The notes beneath the pieces were generated by a model. That model made no database searches and was not told the origin of the DNA. It was given only the letters and a program-made list of their open reading frames with translations. DNA of 32,000 bases, taken from Haloquadratum walsbyi C23. GTDB taxonomy: Archaea; Halobacteriota; Halobacteria; Halobacteriales; Haloferacaceae. This document shows positions 1,858-13,649 of the stretch, piece by piece. Location of the stretch: the NCBI RefSeq assembly GCF_000237865.1, contig NC_017459.1:2820001-2852000 (forward strand), given 5' to 3'. A program made the translations under genes and the position numbers. Position 1 is the stretch's first letter; each line of letters starts with the position of its first letter.

Positions 1858-2184
1858 CGATGGCGAGTTTAATTCCGCCTGCGCTCGTCTCTGGTGAGAC
1901 TCACGTAGAACTGGTAACACCCGAACACACCGTCGGTACCACCCCAACAAATGTCGTCTGTTGCTGCCGTGATGGGTGTGTCCGTGGGTGTCCGCCCCTC
2001 GCGTGGGCGCGACACAGGCCCGGCGCACCGCGTCTCACCCAATAGTGGGTGCGTGGGTTTTGCGAGACCGGTAACGTGGGTTCCAGACTGGTATACGGCG
2101 TCCCGATAGCTCGGAACAGGCGCGTAGCCGAGCGCACGCGTTTCACCCCCGCCCACGGTGGGGCGAGGAACTCGCGCTGCTTTT
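1858..2184 (-). ncRNA. Large G+C-rich structured RNA-like element. Tentatively 7S/SRP-like RNA, or alternatively the largest copy of the interspersed element family described in the findings.
   Basis: There is no credible ORF. The 5' GCGAGUU (2175-2169) pairs with the 3' AACUCGC (1869-1863). Three 5' hairpins have U.G wobbles that work only on the minus strand. GCGCCUGUUCCGAGCUAUCGGGAC resembles the UGUAAU-turn and helix-4 part of SRP Alu domains. A long imperfect helix joins the 5' and 3' halves. An A/T box (2211-2220) lies about 32 nt upstream. I could not find a canonical helix-8 GNAR/AGCA arrangement. Confidence 0.4.
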
Positions 2185-2201
2185 GATTCACAGTGAATAA
2201 C

Positions 2202-5200
2202 TCAACCCCAGTTATTTTTCAATGTTGGTCGATCGGAGACCGGGTCGATATCTATTGGGTCATTTTTGCTGTCAATCGCTTCAAGTGCGGCAAAGGCTGA
2301 TGCGGTTGTTGAGAAGTATGTGATTTCCTCTTCAACGCAGACTTCAAGCGGATCGCGATCGCGGGAAATGACAATATCAATTTCGCCCTGTCGAAGTGCA
2401 TTGATAAGAGTGTCCACATCATCATCCTCGGAGAATGTCACGAGTTCAAAACACGCGTCATAACCATCTCGGAGCGCAGCGCCATCATTACTATCCGGGG
2501 CGGGGAACTCTTCATCTGAGAGATCGACCCAAGCGGTCCCTGAGGATGGAATTGGCTTTCCAACTGAATGTTGTGCTTTGTCATAGGCTTTGCCAAAGGT
2601 TGCAGCGGTTCCCATGACCTCCCCCGTTGATTTCATCTCAGGACCAAGTCGTGGGTCTGACCCTGGTAATCGATCAAACGGTAAGACAACTTCTTTAACA
2701 CTGGTTTCTGCTGGAATTTGTTCGGTAACATCTAATGTGGTCAGCGATTCACCAGCCATTACCTTCGCTGCGAGTTTTGCGATTGGAACACCTGTTGCTT
2801 TTGAGACAAATGGCACGGTGCGTGACGATCGCGGGTTTGCTTCGAGAACATACACCTCATCGTCTTTGATAGCCAGTTGGACATTTAAGAGTCCAACTGT
2901 GTCCAGTGCAGTAGCGATATCCTCTGTAACAGTGCGAACACGAGCCATTGTCTCAGCACTCAGTGACCGCGGGGGGATCATACATGCAGAGTCCCCCGAG
3001 TGGACACCGGCGCTTTCGACATGCTCCATCACACCGCCAATGATCGTACGCTCACCATCAGCAACAGCGTCTACATCAAGTTCAATTGCATCAGCAAGAA
3101 ATTGATCAATAAGAATAGGTTTATCAGGTGAAACGCGGACTGCCTCTTCGATGTACTCCTGTAATTCTACATCAGAGTGGACAACATCCATCGCGCGCCC
3201 TCCAAGCACATATGAGGGGCGGACGAGTACAGGATATCCAAGATCATTCGCAAGCGTAAGCGCTTCAGACTCACTTGTTGCTGATCCACCGACTGGTTGT
3301 TTGATATCGAGACTGCTCATCAGACGGTTAAACCGATCACGATCCTCAGCAAGATCCATTGCATCGACGCTTGTGCCAAGAATATCACAGTCAAGTCCAC
3401 GACGGTCAAGTTCAGCTTCAAGTGGATGTCCAATATTAACTGATGTTTGCCCACCAAACTGCACCATCACACCATCAGCGTTGGTTGCTTCAGCGACATC
3501 CGCAACCTCTTCAGCAGTAATTGGCTCAAAAAAGAGCCCATCAGAGGTATCATAATCTGTTGAGACAGTCTCTGGATTATTATTGATGACGTGTGCATCG
3601 ATTCCAAGTTCCCTAAGAGCACGCACTGCATGGACTGAGCAGTAATCGAATTCCACGCCCTGCCCGATTCTAATCGGACCACCACCGACGACGACAACAC
3701 TTTCAATATCACGGTCAACGCGAAGTTCTCCTGCTGCTGCAGCGCCTTCATACGGTCCAGAACCAGAGGTAAATTCAGGCTTTCTGGAAGAATAATAATA
3801 TGGTGTTTGTGCAGCGAACTCGCCAGCGCAAGTATCGACTTGTTTATACGTTCGACCAGGAACAGTTTTCTCAACCACGTCAATCGTCTTTTCTGTTGTC
3901 TCCGCAATTTCGGTGTTTGTAACACCAGTTGTTGCAGCGGCTGTCAGTTCACCTTCCTCTGCGGTTTTCAGTGCAGTTGGCACGCGCTGGAATCGTTTGA
4001 GATACCACTGTTTGATACCGGTAAGCTCAGCGACCGTATCGACAGTATACTCACGATCGAAGGCTTCAAAGATTGCATACGCACGATCTGGCGTTGGTCT
4101 ACTGAGATACTCAGATTTGAGCGTTTCATCACTGAGAGTCTCAAGATTGGCTGCTGGGTCGTACTCAGATGAGCGTAATGCTTTCAACAATGATTCCTCA
4201 AATGTTCGACCGATGGCCATTGCCTCACCGGTAGATTTCATAGCTGTTGAGAGCTCAAAGTCGACATTATCAAATTTATCCTTAGGCCAGCGCGGAACCT
4301 TTGTAACGATATAGTCGATTGCAGGTTCGAACGCAGCGGTCGTCTCACCGGTTATCTCATTGTTAATTTCATGGAGTCGCTTCCCGAGTGCGACTTTTGC
4401 CGTGACACGAGCAATCGGGTATCCAGTTGCTTTCGAGGCAAGTGCTGAGGACCGAGAGACTCGAGGATTCACCTCAACAACACGATACTCTCCCCCAGGA
4501 GTCCCGTCGTCATGCCATGCGAATTGAATATTACAACCACCTTGAATGCCAAGTTCACGGATAACATCGAGTGCAGCATCACGCATTGCTTGATGTCCTT
4601 CATCAGGAATAACCTGGGATGGAGTCACCACAATTGATTCACCAGTATGAATCCCCATCGGATCAAGATTCTCCATGTTGCAGATAATAATAGTCGAATC
4701 GTCAGCATCACGCATTACTTCATACTCAAGTTCTACCCATCCCGCAATTGACTCGGTGATTAATACTTCACTGTTGCGAGAGAGCCGTAAGCCCTTGCGG
4801 ACACGCTCGATCAGCTCATTCATCTCAGCAACAACACCTGAGCCAGATCCGCCAAGGGTGTATGTAGTCCGAGCAATAACTGGAAGCCCGCCAACTGTCT
4901 CAACAGCCTCATGTACTCGATCTTTGAGATCTGCCTCGGTAAGCGATTGCACAGCCTCGTCTTCTGTCAGTGAGATAGTGGTCGACTGAGGTACCGGCTG
5001 TCCGATGCGCTCCATCCGTTGACGGAACAGATCGCGATCTTCTGTTGCATATATCGTCTCAAGCGGTGTTCCCATAATCTCGACATTGTGTGTTTCAAGA
5101 ACACCTTCCTCTGCAAGTTCTGCTGTGACATTTAATCCAGTCTGCCCACCAAGTCCGGCAATTACACCGTCTGGCTGCTCGGAACGAATAATCTCAGCAA

Positions 5201-5471
5201 TCGCCTCAGTCGTAATTGGTTCGATGTATACCCGATCAGCCATCTCCGGGTCTGTCATGATTGTTGCAGGATTTGAGTTGACGAGGACAACCCGTGCGCC
5301 CTCCTCTTGAAGCGCTCGACAGGCCTGTGCGCCGGAGTAATCGAACTCAGCCGCCTGCCCGATTTGGATTGGACCACTGCCGATAAGCAGGATCGTTCGG
5401 TCGGCTGATGTGGAGTCAGCGCTATTGGTATCGACCCTCATATTGTCATTTGCGTCCTCGTCAGTCATCAC
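2202..5471 (-). CDS. carB: Carbamoyl-phosphate synthase large subunit
   Basis: 1089-aa ORF with two ATP-grasp halves (ILLIGSGPIQIGQAAEFDYSG and VVVVGGGPIRIGQGVEFDYC) and an MGS-like C-terminal domain. Confidence 0.97.
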   Translation of the reverse strand: MMTDEDANDNMRVDTNSADSTSADRTILLIGSGPIQIGQAAEFDYSGAQACRALQEEGARVVLVNSNPATIMTDPEMADRVYIEPITTEAIAEIIRSEQPDGVIAGLGGQTGLNVTAELAEEGVLETHNVEIMGTPLETIYATEDRDLFRQRMERIGQPVPQSTTISLTEDEAVQSLTEADLKDRVHEAVETVGGLPVIARTTYTLGGSGSGVVAEMNELIERVRKGLRLSRNSEVLITESIAGWVELEYEVMRDADDSTIIICNMENLDPMGIHTGESIVVTPSQVIPDEGHQAMRDAALDVIRELGIQGGCNIQFAWHDDGTPGGEYRVVEVNPRVSRSSALASKATGYPIARVTAKVALGKRLHEINNEITGETTAAFEPAIDYIVTKVPRWPKDKFDNVDFELSTAMKSTGEAMAIGRTFEESLLKALRSSEYDPAANLETLSDETLKSEYLSRPTPDRAYAIFEAFDREYTVDTVAELTGIKQWYLKRFQRVPTALKTAEEGELTAAATTGVTNTEIAETTEKTIDVVEKTVPGRTYKQVDTCAGEFAAQTPYYYSSRKPEFTSGSGPYEGAAAAGELRVDRDIESVVVVGGGPIRIGQGVEFDYCSVHAVRALRELGIDAHVINNNPETVSTDYDTSDGLFFEPITAEEVADVAEATNADGVMVQFGGQTSVNIGHPLEAELDRRGLDCDILGTSVDAMDLAEDRDRFNRLMSSLDIKQPVGGSATSESEALTLANDLGYPVLVRPSYVLGGRAMDVVHSDVELQEYIEEAVRVSPDKPILIDQFLADAIELDVDAVADGERTIIGGVMEHVESAGVHSGDSACMIPPRSLSAETMARVRTVTEDIATALDTVGLLNVQLAIKDDEVYVLEANPRSSRTVPFVSKATGVPIAKLAAKVMAGESLTTLDVTEQIPAETSVKEVVLPFDRLPGSDPRLGPEMKSTGEVMGTAATFGKAYDKAQHSVGKPIPSSGTAWVDLSDEEFPAPDSNDGAALRDGYDACFELVTFSEDDDVDTLINALRQGEIDIVISRDRDPLEVCVEEEITYFSTTASAFAALEAIDSKNDPIDIDPVSDRPTLKNNWG

Positions 5472-5531
5472 TGCGGTACAGTCCGCACATCGTAATAAGC
5501 CCGGCGAAATGCTACGAGATACGAAGTCGAA

Positions 5532-5546
5532 TTACGAAATTCGTAA
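5532..5546. promoter_or_regulatory. Perfect 7+1+7 palindrome TTACGAA-A-TTCGTAA upstream of carB (candidate operator)
   Basis: Seen directly, 61-75 nt upstream of the carB ATG (5471). A palindrome of this size is expected about twice by chance in 32 kb, so only its position is suggestive. Confidence 0.25.
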
Positions 5547-5598
5547 GCACATACGCACAGAAATCATTAGATAATAGATCTTCTGTGATCAAGCATAG

Positions 5599-6129
5599 TT
5601 ATTGCATTACATCAGCCTCAGAAAATTCACGCTGGTTGCGATATTGCTCAACAAACTCATCAATATCAAATTCATGCATCTGTGATTCAAACTGTGCTGC
5701 AACAGGGTCCTCACCATGACTCACAGCGTGATCCATTAATTCAATTACGAGTTCAATAATCAGTTCATGTAATCGTCGAGAATCAAAATCAGTAACCCAG
5801 ACAATCCCTGCACCGACTTCACCATCATCGCTCACATCAACAACGGCAACGTGGTCAGGAAACTCCTCAAGTACAATCCCAAGAAGATGAGCGGTCCCAA
5901 ACTCCGGCATCTCCTCGCTAGTCGTCTCTACTGCCTCTCGGAGCACCTCAACAAGGAACTCTGGAAGAAACCGTTCTGGAGGGTGGACATCCATCACAAC
6001 AGCGTGCTGTGTCCCACAGTCACACTCAAACTCACGCATTCCAAGGTCAAGTTTGCGGACAGCAGTTGTCTCACCACAAGTGAGCTCAATCATTTCACCA
6101 CCTCCACTTGGGACCCGCGGTTGCGTCAT
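5599..6129 (-). CDS. Conserved haloarchaeal hypothetical protein with a small Cys/His cluster
   Basis: 176-aa very acidic ORF. The N-terminal LTCGETT...FECDCGTQH resembles a small metal-binding knuckle. I do not recognise the family with confidence. Confidence 0.6.
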   Translation of the reverse strand: MTQPRVPSGGGEMIELTCGETTAVRKLDLGMREFECDCGTQHAVVMDVHPPERFLPEFLVEVLREAVETTSEEMPEFGTAHLLGIVLEEFPDHVAVVDVSDDGEVGAGIVWVTDFDSRRLHELIIELVIELMDHAVSHGEDPVAAQFESQMHEFDIDEFVEQYRNQREFSEADVMQ

Positions 6130-6323
6130 ATCATTATATTATATCCACAGCTGTTAAAAACCCTGATTTAGAGAATCATTCAGCCAAGATTGCGAAAAGA
6201 CCAGCCCCTCATGGAGCGGCTGGAGAGACCGAGTAACAAAGCGTTATCCACATTAATTAGTCGTTTCAGACAGAAGAGCCGAAAGCAGTCGGGTGATTAT
6301 AATAACTAATTGATACGATTTTG

Positions 6324-6575
6324 TCACTCACTCGCGGTTGTATATAATAATGGACCGACAAGCAGCAGTGCAATACCCAAGAAAAGATAATGTATCGGGA
6401 CAAGTGCCTGTGGTGTAAGAATAAAAATAAGACCGAAAAGAGTGGTATTCGCTGCGATTAATCGTTGAGATTTCAATGGAAGTGCACCAACAGTAGCAAG
6501 CACAAACCCGAGTAATAGTGCCTGTCCGATGTTGTAGTTGAGCAGGAAACTATCGACAACTTGTAGAGGGAACAT
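6324..6575 (-). CDS. Small membrane protein (about 3 predicted TM segments)
   Basis: 83-aa hydrophobic ORF, co-oriented with and 57 nt downstream of the membrane protein at 6633..6959. Confidence 0.45.
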   Translation of the reverse strand: MFPLQVVDSFLLNYNIGQALLLGFVLATVGALPLKSQRLIAANTTLFGLIFILTPQALVPIHYLFLGIALLLVGPLLYTTASE

Positions 6576-6632
6576 CGTTAATCAGATTTTCTATGTGACC
6601 TGCGCATTAAACTTCCGTTCTGAAGAGCAATC

Positions 6633-6959
6633 TTATCGCCCGGTTGGTCCTGTGATGTCAAGCGGACGTATCCAGCCAAACCAGACCGCAAATACCATTC
6701 CAGCGTATCCAAAAACGAAAATAAGGACTCCGAGATTGCTGTATCCTGCTTCACCGAGAGCCCGTCGTGCGAGTCCTGACCCGGCAATGCCACTCAATAA
6801 TACGAGTCCTAATAATAATTTGCTTCGTGTCAGTTTGAATAGATTTGAATCATCATTATCAGTTGTATTGATTGTTCTTCCAGTGTTGTCATCAGCACCA
6901 CTATCAGAGCCATCAACAGTATCGTCCGGATTGCTATCTGATGTACTGTCAGTATTCAT
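6633..6959 (-). CDS. Membrane protein with an acidic Asp/Ser/Thr-rich N-terminal tail
   Basis: I trimmed ORF 6633..6995 to the ATG at 6959 (MNTDSTSDSNPDD...). The C-terminal half has two hydrophobic segments. Confidence 0.5.
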   Translation of the reverse strand: MNTDSTSDSNPDDTVDGSDSGADDNTGRTINTTDNDDSNLFKLTRSKLLLGLVLLSGIAGSGLARRALGEAGYSNLGVLIFVFGYAGMVFAVWFGWIRPLDITGPTGR

Positions 6960-7132
6960 CCTTATACTCACTACGTACTGTTTGTTGCTGATCATTCCTG
7001 AATTACTCGATTTTAATTAGAGCATCATAGATGACAGTGTGTATCGGCCATTATTCGAGTAAGAGAGCATACGATCAGATCAATCGTTAGTATACACCGA
7101 AATTAGTTGGCTGGGGAGTTATGGCCCCAGAC

Positions 7133-7157
7133 TTCAACTGGGGAATGCCCAGTTGAA
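7133..7157 (-). other. Perfect 10-bp hairpin in the tRNA-Ile trailer
   Basis: TTCAACTGGG (7133-7142) and CCCAGTTGAA (7148-7157) flank the loop GAATG. A second 6-bp hairpin, CTGGGG/CCCCAG, lies at 7111-7130. A U4 run (complement of 7157-7160) lies 4 nt after the 3' end of the tRNA. Confidence 0.5.
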
Positions 7158-7164
7158 AAGGAGG

Positions 7165-7238
7165 TGGGCCAACACGGATTTGAACCGTGGACCTCCCGGT
7201 TATCAGCCGAGCGCTCAACCTGACTGAGCTATTGGCCC
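7165..7238 (-). tRNA. tRNA-Ile (anticodon GAU)
   Basis: The reverse complement GGGCCAAUAGCUCAGUCAGGUUGAGCGCUCGGCUGAUAACCGGGAGGUCCACGGUUCAAAUCCGUGUUGGCCCA folds as a 74-nt cloverleaf. It has a 7-bp acceptor stem, GCUC/GAGC D stem, CUCGG/CCGGG anticodon stem with loop CUGAUAA, and CACGG/CCGUG T stem with a UUCAAAU loop. CCA is not fully encoded. Confidence 0.95.
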
Positions 7239-7368
7239 CCGGTTAAGCGCACATATTGCTAGCGTGATGATGTGTTTAAGCGTTTCCTTTCAGAGGTTTT
7301 GCAATCGTATCAAGATCACTACACTGTATCGGGGTCGGCAACGATATTATTTCCAGAAGTTGGGGTCG

Positions 7369-7848
7369 CTATCGGTCCTCGTCAGGACGCCCATATTCTT
7401 CAGGATCAAGGTTTACTGTATCCTCATCTGGAAAACCATCTATATATATATTGCCGGATACGAAGTCATTTGTTCGCCGATCAAGTATCGGAGTGACGAT
7501 ATATCGTTTTGTGAGAATTCGAATCGGGTATCGTGTTACCGGAATTGCACTTGCGAATCCGATTATATCAGTGACAATCCCGGGTGTCAATAAAAATGCA
7601 CCAGCAGCGATGAGTAACCCCCCATCGATTAGTTCATTTGTCGGAAGCGTTCCTCGTGCAATCTTCTGTTGAATTCGTTGTATTGTGGTCCGACCCTCAG
7701 CACGAACAAGCACCATTCCAAAAAGACCAGTTAGGACAACAATAAGCACTGTTGTGAGGAGACCGATGGCTGTCGCAATCGGCACAAGAAGCAGTGTATC
7801 AACGAGTGGAATCGATAATAGCCCTACGATCACCCATCGAGTCTTCAT
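7369..7848 (-). CDS. fxsA: FxsA-family membrane protein
   Basis: I trimmed ORF 7369..7863 to MKTRWVIVGLL. The pattern LTGLFGMVLVRAEG...LIAAGAFLLTPGIVTDIIGF...P is the FxsA signature as I recall it. Confidence 0.75.
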   Translation of the reverse strand: MKTRWVIVGLLSIPLVDTLLLVPIATAIGLLTTVLIVVLTGLFGMVLVRAEGRTTIQRIQQKIARGTLPTNELIDGGLLIAAGAFLLTPGIVTDIIGFASAIPVTRYPIRILTKRYIVTPILDRRTNDFVSGNIYIDGFPDEDTVNLDPEEYGRPDEDR

Positions 7849-7976
7849 ATAACATATACTCAATCAGCGTTGATAGACCTTGTGTCAGTATTAATCTCAG
7901 TTGCCGTTATGACATGTAATTATATTTATCATTTACCCTCGAAGCTCTTAGGATGCGTCATCACTGATATCGTATT

Positions 7977-9695
7977 GTGATTGAGGATCCGACCCGCATC
8001 GAGTGGCGTCAGTGGGGTGATGAAGCGTTTACCGAAGCGCAGGCAAGTGATACACCAATACTTCTCTCATTGACAGCAACTTGGTGTAATAGTTGTCGTG
8101 AGATGGATATTGAAACATATGCTGAACCACGTATCGCCGCTAATATTAATGATGGATTTATTCCGATCCGTGTCGATATCGATCGTCATCCACGGGTCCG
8201 TGAGCGATATAATATGGGTGGATTCCCATCGACTGTCTTCTGCACGCCAACAGGAAAGTTACTCACAGGTGCGGCATATCTTGGACCTGATGGGATGCGA
8301 CAAGTCATTGACTCCGTTCGGTCTGTCTGGGCTGAAAGGGGTGCTGATGCCGGCCGAGTCCCACAGGCGCTCACAGATAATCCAACGCCAACAGGAACGG
8401 TCGATGAGCGTATCGAGTCACATCTTGTCGGGCAACTTGAGTCAAAATGGGATGATCGATTTGCGGGGTGGGGAGATAATGCAAAGTTCCCACTTCCGCG
8501 GACGATTGAGTTCGCCCTTAAACGAAAACAAAGCCAAGCAATTGAGACACTTCGTGTGATTGCGGAGTCATTATATGACCATGATATAGGCGGATTCTAC
8601 CGATACGCTAACAGCCGCGATTGGTCGACACCGCATAAAGAGAAAATTCTTGATACAAACGCTGCGCTTATTCGCGCATTCGTAAATGGGTATCTCTATA
8701 CGGGTGAGGAAACACTGCTTGATCCCGCATACGGCACACAGCAATTTCTTATTGATCAACTATGGAATGGTGAAGCATTCGGAAAAAGCACTGTTCCGCG
8801 GTCGGAGAATGAGTCGGTAACAGAGGCATCAGAGACAACCGCCGACACTCGTCGTGACTTAACAGCGTACGCAGGATCAAACGCACTCATGGCAGATGCA
8901 CTATTGACACTCGGTGCATATACCGATGACAAAGCAGCGTATGAATATAGTCGTCGTGCACTCGCGACGCTTGAGTCAGCGTTTATTATTGATAATGGAA
9001 TTGTTCTTCATGCTAAGTATGACAGAGAATCAGATAACGCTAGCATAGCTGATGATGCGACAGTCATCACAGAAATAGCCGATATTGACTCTTCTAAGCC
9101 TGTGCTATTATTAGAAGACCATGCTCGCATCATCAATGCATTCGTCACCGCACATCAAGTGCTTGGACCAGATGTAGATGCGCTCAGTGATACTCCCATG
9201 TCAATTGCGAGTGCTGTTGCTGATGCGGCAATAGATGCACTCTATGATCCTGACGCTAATGGAGCGTTTCGAGATGGTCTGACAACTGGTCCCGGATTGC
9301 TTGATTGCCCACTTCGACCACTTGATGCGACCGTTGAGATGGCAGAAGCACTGTTTGAGCTTGCAGTTGTAAGCGATACTAAGCGATATAGTACAGTTGC
9401 AACAAATGCACTGGCAGCATTTGCGGGTGCTCGTGACCGGTTGGGTGTCCAAGTCGCTGGGTATGGAGCAGCCACAGCACGGGTAACACGACCAATGCTC
9501 GTTGTGAGAATAGGTGCTGGGGTAGGGTCAGATCTTCATCGTGCCGCGCTGCGCATTGCTGATCACGAAGCGATTGTTATACCTAGTGTCTCGGATATCC
9601 AACACGATTCAGCCCGTCTCACCCGTGGGTCAAAAGTCGAGACTGCAACTACGCCGGATGAAATAATGAACGCGGTGTCAATGCTCACAGAGTGA
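7977..9695 (+). CDS. Thioredoxin-domain protein of the DUF255/YyaL type
   Basis: 572-aa ORF with a GTG start. The N-terminal thioredoxin fold carries an atypical CxxC (TATWCNSCREMD), followed by an alpha/alpha-toroid-like region. Confidence 0.75.
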   Translation: MIEDPTRIEWRQWGDEAFTEAQASDTPILLSLTATWCNSCREMDIETYAEPRIAANINDGFIPIRVDIDRHPRVRERYNMGGFPSTVFCTPTGKLLTGAAYLGPDGMRQVIDSVRSVWAERGADAGRVPQALTDNPTPTGTVDERIESHLVGQLESKWDDRFAGWGDNAKFPLPRTIEFALKRKQSQAIETLRVIAESLYDHDIGGFYRYANSRDWSTPHKEKILDTNAALIRAFVNGYLYTGEETLLDPAYGTQQFLIDQLWNGEAFGKSTVPRSENESVTEASETTADTRRDLTAYAGSNALMADALLTLGAYTDDKAAYEYSRRALATLESAFIIDNGIVLHAKYDRESDNASIADDATVITEIADIDSSKPVLLLEDHARIINAFVTAHQVLGPDVDALSDTPMSIASAVADAAIDALYDPDANGAFRDGLTTGPGLLDCPLRPLDATVEMAEALFELAVVSDTKRYSTVATNALAAFAGARDRLGVQVAGYGAATARVTRPMLVVRIGAGVGSDLHRAALRIADHEAIVIPSVSDIQHDSARLTRGSKVETATTPDEIMNAVSMLTE

Positions 9696-9730
9696 AAGAG
9701 TTGCTACCGGATCTCATCGATTGGAATCAC

Positions 9731-10080
9731 TAACAGCGCTTTGTACCGGGACTGCGACCGCCATACCTCCACGCTGGGTGGCGTTTGCACTGGGGTTAAC
9801 CTGGGGCACAGCGCCTGTATATCGGTTAAAACTGTTTTTATGATGCTGAATGCTGACCGAGGCGGTTTCTACGCCCTGTTTCAATGAGACAGATTGAGAT
9901 TCTTTCTTTCGTCGTGGAAGCCACCTCGTGAACTCACCCAGGGTCAAGCCCTGAGGCAGTCGCCCCGAACCGCCTATACATCAGCCGAATGAGGTGCAGG
10001 ACGCAGAAAATAACCCCGAATCCCCGTCTCTCGACAGTAGGTACGGTATAGTGGCGTGGCAATACCAGCGTTCCTTTTTG
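9731..10080 (+). repeat. G+C-rich ORF-free structured block, member of the interspersed element family
   Basis: The only ORF (9714..9947, minus) is strongly basic and not halophile-like. Modules are collinear with the element at 2184-1858 and with 24673-24880 (coordinates in the findings). The block starts 36 nt after the upstream stop codon. Confidence 0.45.
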
Positions 10081-10112
10081 AACTGTAAAATTCTCAATCT
10101 CACAATCCAGAA

Positions 10113-10133
10113 AGTCTCCGCGTGTGGGAGACT
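10113..10133 (-). terminator. Hairpin plus U-tract downstream of mptA
   Basis: AGTCTCC (10113-10119) pairs with GGAGACT (10127-10133). On the minus strand the hairpin is followed by UUUCUGG. It lies 25 nt after the mptA stop. Confidence 0.4.
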
Positions 10134-10157
10134 CCGTCGTTTATTTTGAAGAGAATA

Positions 10158-11087
10158 TCACGATGCACTAACCTCTGCTCGCAATTGTTCAAGTGTAACC
10201 TCACGTTCGGCATGTGCATTGTGCTGATGAATTGATTCATCATTTGATTGTTTCATTCGAACAACAGCGTCATCAGCGAGATGGTCAAATGAATTGACAA
10301 CCTGTTCAGCCATTGAGCGAACACAGTCTTCAACAAACTTTGCATCGGCATGCGCATGATATGTCATATAGTCTTCGTCCGGACGTTTTGCAAGGTTATA
10401 GATCCGCGCAGACATTGCATCGCGAGCGATATCAGCGAGTTCAATCAAATCAACATCTGGTGATCCATCTGCTGTAACTGTAAGTGTTGCATGTCCTCGC
10501 TGTGAGTGCCCCGGTTGCGGGACCTGCTCAAGAAACGTCTCAATTGTCTCATCCTCAATATCGAGATCATGCATCACATCACGAGCTCTGGATGCAGACA
10601 TTCCTTGAGAGCATGGACATACTGTCATTCCGATTACCTCTGCTCCAATTTCTTCGCGTGTTCCCTCATCAGTCGCAGTCGCGCTGGCAAGTATCGAGAT
10701 TGTATTTTGTGTTGGAAGTTCACTTGCTGGCGTATCTTCATGCATAACTAGATCTGCGGTCATCTCGACTGTTGCAGTTGTTGTATATTCGTGTTTTTCC
10801 AATAGTCGCTCTGCAACATCACCGCACATATCCTCAACGCGAGAAACAGACCCTGAGACAGCCGCCTCAAGCGTCTCATCAATTACTTGCATATTTCGGC
10901 TCATATCGATTCCTTTCCGACCACTTGGGAGGTCAACAAACACCTCGAATTCAGCCATTAATACAAGTGGGGTTTCTCCATCGCGCTCGATCTTCACGAG
11001 TTTATCAACGTCTGTGACTCCGACCTGACTCAACCCGACGGTGACATCGGGACGACTTGCCTGAACATCAGGCAACTGGTGACTCAT
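10158..11087 (-). CDS. mptA: GTP cyclohydrolase of the FolE2/MptA family
   Basis: 309-aa ORF. Recognised by LPDVQ...VGVTDV...[21 protein letters not shown], the CPCSQ motif and HSQRGH, which are characteristic of the archaeal type IB/MptA cyclohydrolase. Confidence 0.85.
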
Positions 11088-11281
11088 CGATGAGACCCTA
11101 GAACGGTATTCGATTAATGCTTTCGTTCTGTAAAGACGAATATTTGTCTGGTCAAAATCAACGAAGAGGATATATAATTCATAGTATACACATGTATATC
11201 TGAAGCTGAGATAATTACATTCAGGATAGTAGTAAGACCAATCAGAGACACAATCGAGATAGCCATTAAGAATGAGAGTGA

Positions 11282-11674
11282 CTAGGGCCAGTCATCACGT
11301 TCGTTCGACTCAAACGGATCATCTGTCTCTGTAGCCTCAGCTAGTTCCCACCCGGCAGCGGACGCTGCATTGTCGAGCGGGAGGAATTCCCAATCAACAC
11401 TTTCAGCAACATCAGCATCGGTCTGGTCATTACTGACGAGAACGTGACGGGCTGTTTCAAATTGTTGTTTGACATTCTCAAGACTTGCCTCGACTCCACG
11501 TGGTCCTGAGAAGAAATCCTGTCTCACCCGATGTTTCCGGGTGAAGTTTGTAACAACATATGTTGGCTTCTCACTCACAACGCCAACGTATTCTGTCCAC
11601 TGCCGCGCATCATTAAATACAGAATTCGGATCTGCAAGCGCGCGTAACGCTTCTAACTCAAATGCAAGCGTCAT
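11282..11674 (-). CDS. Conserved haloarchaeal hypothetical protein
   Basis: Acidic ORF. I prefer the start at [13 protein letters not shown] (11674). The 33 upstream codons of ORF 11282..11773 are basic (SKKKSKTAHSRVR) and contain an A8 run. Confidence 0.55.
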
Positions 11675-12026
11675 ATCCGCGTCACCACCTGGTGCTCCGC
11701 CATCAGTTCGGACACGCGAGTGAGCAGTTTTGCTCTTTTTTTTCGAATGTAAACTGTATATACTATTGGTCATAATTATATTGATCTTAACTATGCTACT
11801 GGACAGTCATCAAAAATTGCATCGGTCCAGCTTTACTTCATGACTTCGTATAAAGTCTGTTAGTCATAGATATTATTTCTATCAGATAAAAATATATGAA
11901 TCTAGATTCAGATGCATCTTGAAGATTATGTCTATTTTATATTATCGTGGTCGAATCTATCCTCTTGATCATTATCCGAACCGTCCTCACGTATTAAACG
12001 AGCGCTGAGTCGTATCTGGACCTAAA

Positions 12027-12121
12027 CGGAAAGCAGCGCGAGTTCCCGATGCCACTATGCGTCGGGTACTTCACAGAATTGTAATCCGGATATCATGACG
12101 GCTAATCCCGAGGCAGTTCAC
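12027..12121 (+). ncRNA. Truncated paralogue of the 5' domain of the element at 2184-1858
   Basis: The 17-nt stretch 12030-12046 is identical to 2183-2167 (minus strand). It is followed by a 13-bp hairpin (12040-12071) that is isostructural with 2169-2146 but has a different stem sequence. A UUGUAAUCC motif and a TATTAAA box (11992-11998) are also present. Confidence 0.45.
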
Positions 12122-13366
12122 TCACTCGATAACTGTTTCTATTGGCTCAAGATCGTCTAATTCGAATTCTTCCTGCATCAATATATCACGCTGACCAGAG
12201 ACAACGCGACGTTCTCGCATCAGTTGTTTATATTTCGATTGTGGTGAGAGGTCACCGATAAGAACGCCACCGACAATACGCCCATCTTTAAATGCTAATC
12301 GTCGCCATTCAGTGTCGGAGTGTTTTGCCTCGGCAGTATCATCACCAAGGGTTGGATGTCCAAATGAGAGGAATGGGAAATCAAAGTGAGTAATCGAGTA
12401 TGATGAGACCCACTCAAATGGTTCTGAATTATACTCAATCATGTTTTTTGCTGCAATCGATCCTTGCTCTTTTGCCGACCCCCATGCGCCATTCTGCCCA
12501 CGTTCTCCAAGTATCCGGTCATAAAACTGTGTGATATCGCCTGCAGCGAATACATCCTCGTGACTTGTCTGCATATATTCATCGACAATAATCCCATCAT
12601 CACACTCGATTGGGGTATTTTGGAGAATCTCAGTATTGAAATTCAACCCAATCGCAATACCAACGAAGTCAGCATCATACTGGTCACCATTTGGGTCAAC
12701 GGCTGTAGTTACATGACCAGTCTCATCGACCTCAAAGTGATCAACTCCTGACTGGAACACGGGCTCAACGCCACGTTCACGAAGCGCATCATGAATAATT
12801 GATGCACCCTGCTCGGAAAGCGCATATCGCCACCAGCAATCCCCGCGCATCAAGTACTTTCCTTCGACGTCCTGTGCGGCAGTGATAGCTGCGAGGTCAA
12901 TCCCGAGTAATCCTGCTCCAACAATAACGGAACTGTCCGCAGACTCAATGTTTGATTTGATGTCTCGAGCATCTTGGAATGTCCAGAAGTGATGGACTCC
13001 ATTTGCGTCAGCGTTCTCAACCGGCAGTTGTGTCGGCGTCCCACCTGTCGCGAGAAGGAGCTTATCCCAGTCATACACGTCGCCATGATGTGTCTCAATT
13101 GTATGCTCAGTAACATCAATATCAACGACAAGGGTATTCAATTCGAGATTAATATCACGATCATCATACCAAGACACATCGTGAATTGAGATTGGCGCCG
13201 CTGGGAGCTTTCCTTTTGCATACTCCTTGATTAGAATTCTATTATATAACGACTCGCCTTCATCGGTGAGAACGGTGATATCAGCATCAGGTGCCTCCCC
13301 ACGAAGTGTCTCAGCGGCGGAGCTCCCCGCAACCCCGTCACCGATAATCACGTACGACTGGGTCAT
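12122..13366 (-). CDS. FAD/NAD(P)-dependent pyridine nucleotide-disulfide oxidoreductase family protein
   Basis: 414-aa ORF with two Rossmann GxGxxG motifs (VIIGDGVAGSSAA and VIVGAGLLGIDLA) and FAAGD near the C-terminal third. Confidence 0.85.
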   Translation of the reverse strand: MTQSYVIIGDGVAGSSAAETLRGEAPDADITVLTDEGESLYNRILIKEYAKGKLPAAPISIHDVSWYDDRDINLELNTLVVDIDVTEHTIETHHGDVYDWDKLLLATGGTPTQLPVENADANGVHHFWTFQDARDIKSNIESADSSVIVGAGLLGIDLAAITAAQDVEGKYLMRGDCWWRYALSEQGASIIHDALRERGVEPVFQSGVDHFEVDETGHVTTAVDPNGDQYDADFVGIAIGLNFNTEILQNTPIECDDGIIVDEYMQTSHEDVFAAGDITQFYDRILGERGQNGAWGSAKEQGSIAAKNMIEYNSEPFEWVSSYSITHFDFPFLSFGHPTLGDDTAEAKHSDTEWRRLAFKDGRIVGGVLIGDLSPQSKYKQLMRERRVVSGQRDILMQEEFELDDLEPIETVIE

Positions 13367-13394: not shown

Positions 13395-13514
13395 GTGAAT
13401 TGCTATCAGGAGTGCCCAGGTCTTAACAACGATATTAATACACACACCAACCTATAACATAATATCTGCAATTCAGATCTCTTCATATGAACCGTTTGTA
13501 TGGCAGCCGTGAAC

Positions 13515-13545
13515 TGCCTCGAGGTCAAATCAAAGCCTCGAGGCA
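13515..13545. promoter_or_regulatory. 10-bp inverted repeat containing two CCTCGAGG palindromes, in a divergent promoter region
   Basis: TGCCTCGAGG (13515-13524) and CCTCGAGGCA (13536-13545) are separated by 11 nt. The two 8-bp palindromes are 19 bp apart centre to centre. Confidence 0.4.
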
Positions 13546-13649
13546 CTCGCCTTGTTCCGCCTGTAGATTGATTACAATCACATGTATGAGTGGTGTAATA
13601 TACATATACAATCGGATACTTGAAGTTCGCTCAAACTAATCCAGGGTTG

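Follow-up and report, generated by a model that had tools for sequence, protein, structure and literature searches.

Two loci of Haloquadratum walsbyi C23 that share a 17-mer and a compensated hairpin are very probably non-autonomous derivatives of one IS200/IS605-type lineage

Introduction

Two places in the window, the 32,000-nt stretch of Haloquadratum walsbyi C23 DNA analyzed here, carry the same 17 nucleotides, each leading into a hairpin of the same shape whose stem differs in sequence. Protein sequences encoded in the window are identical to Hqrw_3847, CCC41579, and CCC41581 of that strain. We refer to them as copy A (minus strand) and copy B (plus strand). Do they belong to a family of unannotated RNA genes, or does another kind of element account for both the shared 17-mer and the compensated stems?

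Palindrome-associated transposable elements (PATEs), which come from IS605-type transposons, were catalogued in a comparison of strains C23 and HBSQ001; C23 holds 177 PATEs and 99 IS605-type elements (Dyall-Smith et al. 2011, PMC3119063). In Table S9 of that study, the 5′ end of HqIRS44 reads TCTAA ACGAAAAGCAGCGCGAGTTCCCCGCCCCACCGTGGGCGGGGGTGAA, TCTAA being the targeting sequence, and its 3′ end reads ...CCACGGGCCACCGCGCCCGTGGTACTTCAC; the 5′ end of ISNph6 is nearly identical to that of HqIRS44. HqIRS45, which is of HqIRS44 type, measures 403-406 bp (Table S8). The left and right palindromes of HqIRS44 differ from each other, and some HqIRS44 insertions are strain specific (PMC3119063). [quoted passage not shown]

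The best reference point for how such ends are recognized is IS608, whose TnpA binds subterminal imperfect palindromes as hairpins and does so on the top strand only. Cleavage falls 19 nt 5′ of the left hairpin foot and 10 nt 3′ of the right hairpin foot, at sites that are read by base pairing with bases beside the foot and not by the protein directly (PMC3201880).

Results

An exact 17-mer and two hairpins of one shape

The 17-mer AAAGCAGCGCGAGTTCC matches the window exactly at 12030-12046 on the plus strand and at 2183-2167 on the minus strand, as originally predicted, and nowhere else; no third match appeared in the window with up to two mismatches allowed, and none of 100 dinucleotide-preserving shuffles reached two matches. 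Each occurrence runs into an 8-bp stem with a 6-nt loop: CCTCGCCC/CACCGT/GGGCGGGG in copy A and CCCGATGC/CACTAT/GCGTCGGG in copy B. The claim that the two hairpins share one structure with compensated stems is borne out, since three both-sided changes and one wobble separate the two stems. So is the strand dependence of the wobbles: the T.G pair of copy B (12050.12061) and that of copy A form on the named strands only. The copy B hairpin pairs at 8/8 positions, counting its one T.G wobble, lengthens to 12040-12071 over a single T.T mismatch, and is predicted whether the strand is folded as RNA or as DNA; as DNA, the top strand folds at −8.4 kcal/mol and the bottom strand at −6.9. The short motifs reported beside the two copies are likewise present, namely TATTAAA at 11992-11998, TGTAATCC at 12080-12087, and GAAAAATAAC at 2220-2211, the last of which lies within the final codons of carB.

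We also considered whether the two 17-mers are the arms of an inverted repeat that bounds one composite element of 9.9 kb, from 2167 to 12046. We rejected this arrangement because the arms face outward and each copy is complete from left to right.

The 17-mer belongs to the left end of a family found in many haloarchaea

The published 5′ end of the PATE HqIRS44 and of ISNph6 contains the 17-mer (TCTAA followed by ACGAAAAGCAGCGCGAGTTCCCCGCCCCACCGTGGGCGGGG; published 3′ end, ...GCCCGTGGTACTTCAC). A scan of 185,579 species genomes for the 17-mer returned at least 120 stretches, mostly unrelated bacterial chance matches; among the matches listed, at least about 29 copies in 28 haloarchaeal loci also carry the extended context, which consists of tCTAAACGA, the 17-mer, and then CCGCCCCACCGTGGGCGGGGGTGAAGCGCGT. 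The genera among these listed matches are Natrialba, Salinibaculum, Halobacterium, Halonotius, Natronococcus, Halovenus, Haloarcula, and Natronomonas. In nearly all of the listed haloarchaeal copies tCTAA stands directly 5′ of ACGA or ACGG, and in all of them the 17-mer is part of the left end and keeps a constant spacing to the hairpin. Eight matches in viral contigs lack the CTAAACG flank and were set aside as chance.

What follows the left end divides the family into two classes. The full elements, ~1.85 kb long, encode a 135-aa IS200-type TnpA (PF01797, Y1_Tnp; E = 1e-38), transcribed divergently, and a TnpB of about 434-457 aa (PF07282; E = 7e-15); carriers of tnpA and tnpB with the same left end include loci L018, L070, L125, and L127. 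The 3′ ends of the full elements score 171-179 bits against Rfam sot2652, and they finish with the hairpin CCTCGGGC CACCGC GCCCGAGG followed by TTGTTTAC. The second class is non-coding, measures ~400 nt, and finishes with CCACGGGC CACCGY GCCCGTGG followed by TACTTCAC.

Since family members encode TnpB together with an omega RNA, the 17-mer could in principle be conserved as the target or guide match of an RNA-guided nuclease and not as part of a transposon end. We give this reading next to no weight: omega RNA guides derive from the flank of the right end, which differs in every copy, whereas the 17-mer keeps its place within the left end at its fixed spacing from the hairpin, and the DNA 3′ of the right end of copy A (GGGTAGTATGAC...) is unrelated to it.

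Several retrieved loci show variant ends. Left-end hairpins are split in Natrialba sp. SSL1 (locus L058, about 7500-7608), Halorutilales Cl-col2-1 (L093, about 3500-3619), and Halovenus amylolytica (L112, about 3386-3500), where at least 50 nt of short tandem hairpins (TTCCGAAAACCGCAGGTTTTCGG CTTTCGCAAATCTTTGATTTGCG ...) sit between CCGCCC and CACCGTGGGCGGGG. These arrays resemble SMR-A elements, which have been reported in PATE palindromes of Haloquadratum; here they occur in other genera. In a Salinibaculum rarum plasmid (L066, 1018-1060) and three saltern metagenome contigs (L136-L138), the left arm ...GCGCGAGTTCC is joined straight to GCGC..., which resembles the right arm of the right end; at this junction, a second type of core-deletion junction, an alternative 5-6 bp hairpin GCGCG/CGCGC replaces the canonical stem. 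A Natronomonas metagenome-assembled genome (L011, 3873-4600) has an HqIRS44-type left end joined to the middle of tnpB and a 3′ end of another right-end type (...GCCCCGCCCTTCAGGCGGGGAGGGTATCAA); it seems to be a chimera or to have lost internal sequence, and owing to its different right-end type we did not accept it as the parent IS. Two left ends lie 92 nt apart with N between them in Natrialba aegyptia (L074, 273-460), most likely an assembly artifact at a repeat.

Copy A is a complete PATE with a core that resembles an omega RNA scaffold

Copy A had been described as 7S-like. With Rfam, however, no match to SRP RNA was obtained at E values up to 10 in 1700-2400 or 11750-12400, and the sole match at gathering score in the whole window is a tRNA-Ile (7163-7238). 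The permissive run gave only RF02657 (sot2652) in copy A, at 18.5 bits (E = 0.1) against a gathering score of 61 bits, and we therefore abandoned its identification as 7S/SRP RNA or any other known RNA. RF02657 covers RNAs that overlap the 3′ end of IS1341-type (tnpB) genes (PMC4615843), and sot RNAs are now taken as omega RNAs (PMC12558985); even a weak match of this kind pointed in the direction of a transposon.

Aligned end to end, copy A is 83-84% identical to PATEs of Salinibaculum (L040, L108) and Salinarchaeum (L114), and we describe it as a complete PATE (Table 1). With its 5-nt target it measures 403 nt, and its neighbors are carB (2202-5471, minus strand) and a DUF2240 gene. It agrees with the published 5′ end ACGAAAAGCAGCGCGAGTTCC at 19/21 positions and then enters the palindrome; its tail keeps 6/8 positions of the family tail, behind a decayed palindrome, and its target 3/5 of the consensus TCTAA. 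ORFs within copy A have no Pfam match. The core opens with the omega RNA 5′ motif GTTACCGGTCTCGCAAAACCC and shares a 21-nt match with a full IS, at the corresponding point where the omega RNA region of that IS begins; copy A could be an orphan omega-RNA-like module that TnpB might use in trans.

Table 1. Positions of copy A, copy B, and nearby PATE-type sequences in the window
Feature	Positions	Strand	Sequence, basis, or remark
Copy A, complete 398-nt HqIRS44-type PATE	2187-1790	−	Full-length alignment to PATEs of other genera
Copy A target-like pentamer	2192-2188	−	TGTGA
Copy A linker	2187-2169	−	
Copy A left-end hairpin	2168-2147	−	
Copy A core, omega RNA scaffold-like	about 2075-1922	−	
Copy A right-end hairpin, decayed	1819-1798	−	
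Copy A tail	1797-1790	−	TAGTTCAT
Terminal-only HqIRS46-like element	9928-9980	−	Hairpin-plus-TTCAC scan
Copy B target, outside the element, 5′ side	12021-12025	+	CCTAA; family consensus TCTAA
Copy B, 49-nt terminal-only derivative (54 nt with target)	12026-12074	+	
Copy B 19-nt left-end linker	12026-12044	+	ACGGAAAGCAGCGCGAGTT; holds the first 15 nt of the 17-mer
Copy B sole subterminal hairpin	12045-12066	+	CCCGATGC CACTAT GCGTCGGG; predicted fold
Copy B right-end tail, element end	12067-12074	+	TACTTCAC; 8/8 match to the HqIRS44-type 3′ terminus
Sequence like the right arm and tail of an HqIRS46-type right end	12107-12121	+	CCCGAGGCAGTTCAC; local alignment
Terminal-only HqIRS46-type PATE (target TCTAC, then a 54-nt element)	13509-13567	−	Compared with the HqIRS46 core-deleted sequence, Table S9

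Copy B joins a left-end linker and a right-end tail through a single hairpin

Copy B lies in the 348-nt spacer between the genes for a FAD-dependent oxidoreductase (12122-13366, minus strand) and a DUF7124 protein (11282-11773, minus strand). Its linker, taken together with the CC at 12045-12046, agrees with the published HqIRS44/ISNph6 5′ end at 20/21 positions. The distance from target to hairpin foot is 19 nt, and the pentamer CCTAA keeps 4/5 positions of TCTAA. On the other side of the hairpin, the family 3′ terminus follows at the expected offset from the foot. Copy B had been drawn as running to 12121, but similarity to every family member stops at 12074, where the right-end tail ends. 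It is thus a truncated relative of copy A, one of the two options originally allowed for it. In the copies here, as in HqIRS44-type elements, the ends have no mutual inverted repeat, and the flanks of copy B (...CTGGAC and AGAATTG) have no common direct repeat, in keeping with an element that makes no target duplication.

Could copy B instead be the broken left end of a decayed element, with TACTTCAC standing after the hairpin by coincidence? In favor of this, its stem is unlike both the left-end and the right-end stems of HqIRS44, and full left ends carry GTGAAGCGC after the hairpin, the opposite strand of which also has TTCAC-like letters. We consider this very unlikely, because the tail agrees with the family 3′ terminus at 8/8 positions exactly where it should stand, a match with a chance probability of ~1.5e-5 (4^-8) for any one fixed position, because similarity to left-end interiors stops wholly at the hairpin, and because a length of 49 nt (54 nt with target) fits the ~52-bp terminal-only class (PMC3119063).

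Sequence 3′ of copy B and further mini-elements nearby

Collinear blocks shared with copy A had been proposed 3′ of the copy B hairpin. We aligned 12075-12121 locally against the interior of copy A and found that 54/1000 shuffles reached the same score; the best segment pairs CCCGAGGCAGTTCA with the right-end tail of copy A and is not among the blocks listed. The blocks are therefore not upheld. The last 15 nt of the stretch behave differently: CCCGAGGCAGTTCAC, which adjoins the oxidoreductase stop codon (12122-12124), has a local score met by 3/2000 shuffles against the HqIRS46 core-deleted sequence and by 1/2000 against the element at 13509, whereas the first 30 nt of 12075-12121, taken by themselves, reach no significance (464/2000). 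By this sequence likeness, CCCGAGGCAGTTCAC probably survives from a second PATE that has since decayed. It may be what is left of a decayed 47-nt terminal-only element that inserted directly after the TTCAC end of copy B.

Copy B has three further PATE-type ends as neighbors within 2.2 kb. The terminal-only element at 13509-13567 reads TCTAC followed by AGGCGGAACAAGGCGAGTG CCTCGAGG CTTTGATTTGA CCTCGAGG CAGTTCAC, in which CCTCGAGG forms the hairpin arms and CAGTTCAC the tail; its fold has a z-score of −3.1. It occupies the spacer directly upstream of the oxidoreductase gene, so that with copy B on the other side this gene is bracketed by mini-PATEs. The element at 9928-9980, between a thioredoxin-domain gene and a GTP cyclohydrolase gene, starts with AGGCGG after TGTAT and reads TGTAT followed by AGGCGGTTCGGGGCGACTG CCTCAGGG CTTGA CCCTGGG TGAGTTCAC. 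With 4 or 5 ends inside 4 kb, the locus illustrates how densely terminal-only PATEs can occupy Haloquadratum intergenic spacers, in line with the numbers of PATEs and IS605-type elements published for C23.

Distribution among strains and the case for a small RNA

Copy B is present in every C23/HBSQ001-like metagenome contig examined. The orthologous spacer has an unrelated sequence in the J07HQW1 and J07HQW2 lineages of Haloquadratum, and copy B is missing there. No empty site was recovered for either copy; the J07HQW1 and J07HQW2 spacers are too diverged to define that of copy B. In the J07HQW2 spacer between the oxidoreductase and DUF7124 genes (KE356561.1; locus L130, 3746-3986), TCTAC AGATGAACAAGTCGAGTGGCTCGGGGCTTGTCCCCGAGGTCCCTCAC has the form of an HqIRS46-type terminal-only PATE. 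As this element stands there in place of copy B, the same spacer has been struck independently across lineages. A metagenome scan that skipped the orthologous site found one further single-hairpin HqIRS44-type locus, in three samples, with a decayed canonical stem.

The original prediction left room for copy B being the start of a small RNA. On a fuller version of this reading, copy B is or has become all or the 5′ portion of a small RNA gene with plus-strand transcription from the TATTAAA box, its hairpin is selected as RNA, and it might act antisense at the 3′ end of the oxidoreductase mRNA. Several observations agree with it. The hairpin is intact, an A/T-rich box lies 32 nt upstream, and across seven strain-level contigs 12013-12059 is invariant compared with 16 SNPs in the remaining spacer; the only SNP in the stem, 12060 C>T, keeps a G.T pair (G.U as RNA) on the plus strand. 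Against these stand the origin of the sequence, which is the terminus of a mobile family found in many genera, its absence from the J07HQW1 and J07HQW2 spacers, and the second terminal-only copy, which has lost its hairpin at another locus. Moreover, copy B has no Rfam match, the RNA fold of 12022-12125 is ordinary (z = −1.77; 7/200 shuffles fold equally well), and the DNA 3′ of 12074 varies among strains and had no homologue that we could find. On balance, we regard a small RNA as improbable here, and none of our results requires the promoter boxes or an antisense RNA.

Pairing is kept while stem sequences change

The original prediction suggested that covariation be checked on more homologues. 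For illustration we assembled by hand a set of 14 hairpins: left ends taken from several genera, right ends both of full elements and of PATEs, copy B itself, and its strain variant. In this hand-picked set 96.4% of cells are paired, 5/8 pairs show both-sided changes, and 0/500 shuffles met the covariation score; sliding the register by 1-3 columns lowers the paired fraction to 34-53%. Left and right hairpins of one element already differ in their stems, so a copy B stem that is paired but different is normal for the family. The argument from compensation to selection on RNA structure thus stands in part: a conserved structure on one strand is real, but it belongs to the left end of a mobile element and not to an RNA gene. 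Compensated stems with strand-limited wobbles fit a function in single-stranded DNA as well as one in RNA.

Discussion

We conclude, with a probability of about 0.9, that both loci are non-autonomous derivatives of one IS200/IS605-type lineage, the HqIRS44/ISNph6 group. The family to which the features of both copies belong is already known, having been described in this genome. The departure of both targets from the TCTAA consensus, CCTAA in copy B and TGTGA in copy A, counts against the PATE reading.

Copy A would then be a full PATE with a left end, a core taken from the omega RNA region, and a right end, and copy B a terminal-only PATE that retains a 19-nt linker, one subterminal hairpin, and an 8-nt right-end tail, 3′ of CCTAA. 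By analogy with IS608, the hairpin would form in single-stranded top-strand DNA and be bound by its shape by a Y1/HUH transposase, TnpA, with cleavage expected 19 nt upstream and 8-10 nt downstream of it at sites read via base pairing beside the foot. Recognition in which shape outweighs stem sequence would account for stems that vary between left ends, right ends, and subfamilies yet stay paired, and for T.G wobbles on the active strand only. The strict conservation of the 17-mer would fit its position in the linker, which separates the cleavage site from the foot of the hairpin.

The likeliest origin of copy B is a parent element that lost the core separating its two near-terminal palindromes; alternatively, copy B was mobilized as a short form. 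Since the two palindromes of HqIRS44 differ, a simple repeat-mediated deletion of exactly HqIRS44 would not yield a perfect stem; the parent was therefore probably a relative with matching palindromes. The palindrome expected of such a parent, CCCGATGCCACTATGCGTCGGG (CCCGATGCCACTATGYGTCGGG), had no match in the viral contigs or in any retrieved locus.

Beyond transposon descent, the 49-nt element might have a present role, either as a minimal REP-like substrate mobilized by TnpA in trans or as a sequence adopted by the host, whether to stabilize or terminate the oxidoreductase mRNA from within its 3′ UTR or to act as a short antisense RNA. Both possibilities would account for a stem that is fully compensated and does not vary among strains, although the sister copy elsewhere has decayed; still, we think a role of this kind unlikely.

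These results correct the view that a GC-rich, structured element of ~400 nt and a short hairpin with a common 17-mer make up a family of unannotated RNA genes: they are transposon ends. Compensated stems with strand-specific wobbles are to be expected at IS200/IS605 ends because the transposase reads a hairpin in single-stranded DNA, and in genomes rich in such elements this signature alone is insufficient proof of an RNA gene.

The closest known elements are the PATEs HqIRS44 and HqIRS45, which are related to ISNph6 and ISNph8 of Natronomonas pharaonis. They come from the same organism and share with our copies the 5′ terminus including the 17-mer, the targeting pentamer in part (4/5 positions in copy B, 3/5 in copy A), the 3′ terminus TACTTCAC, in the case of copy A the length (398 nt plus the 5-nt target = 403), and the lack of terminal inverted repeats and of a transposase gene. 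Copy A has diverged from them in its target, in its tail, and by two G>A changes in the right-end stem, whereas copy B consists of the termini only and has a stem sequence that does not appear in the published table. Copy B in turn resembles the terminal-only 52-bp PATEs (core deletions of HqIRS46 and ISHwa23) in having one hairpin, a left linker, and a right tail within ~50 nt of intergenic DNA, but its termini are those of the HqIRS44-type group, unlike HqIRS46 or ISHwa23.

Two other systems share part of this design. Like copy B, REP elements (RAYT/TnpA-REP) are single short intergenic hairpins with a conserved 5′ flank and kinship to IS200/IS605 ends; copy B differs in retaining both IS termini and in a copy number that appears low (one further single-hairpin copy in the metagenome scan). 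For RF02657, the full relatives with the same left end reach high scores, whereas copy A, although its core shares the starting motif, stays far under the gathering score and copy B holds no part of an omega RNA.

Compared with IS608 of Helicobacter pylori, the archaeal family differs in that tnpA is divergent from tnpB, the target is TCTAA instead of TTAC, and the right spacing is 8 nt instead of 10. What the two would have in common are subterminal imperfect palindromes bound as hairpins on one strand, a short target lying outside the element, right cleavage a few nt 3′ of the right hairpin, the lack of target duplication, and a left spacing of 19 nt.
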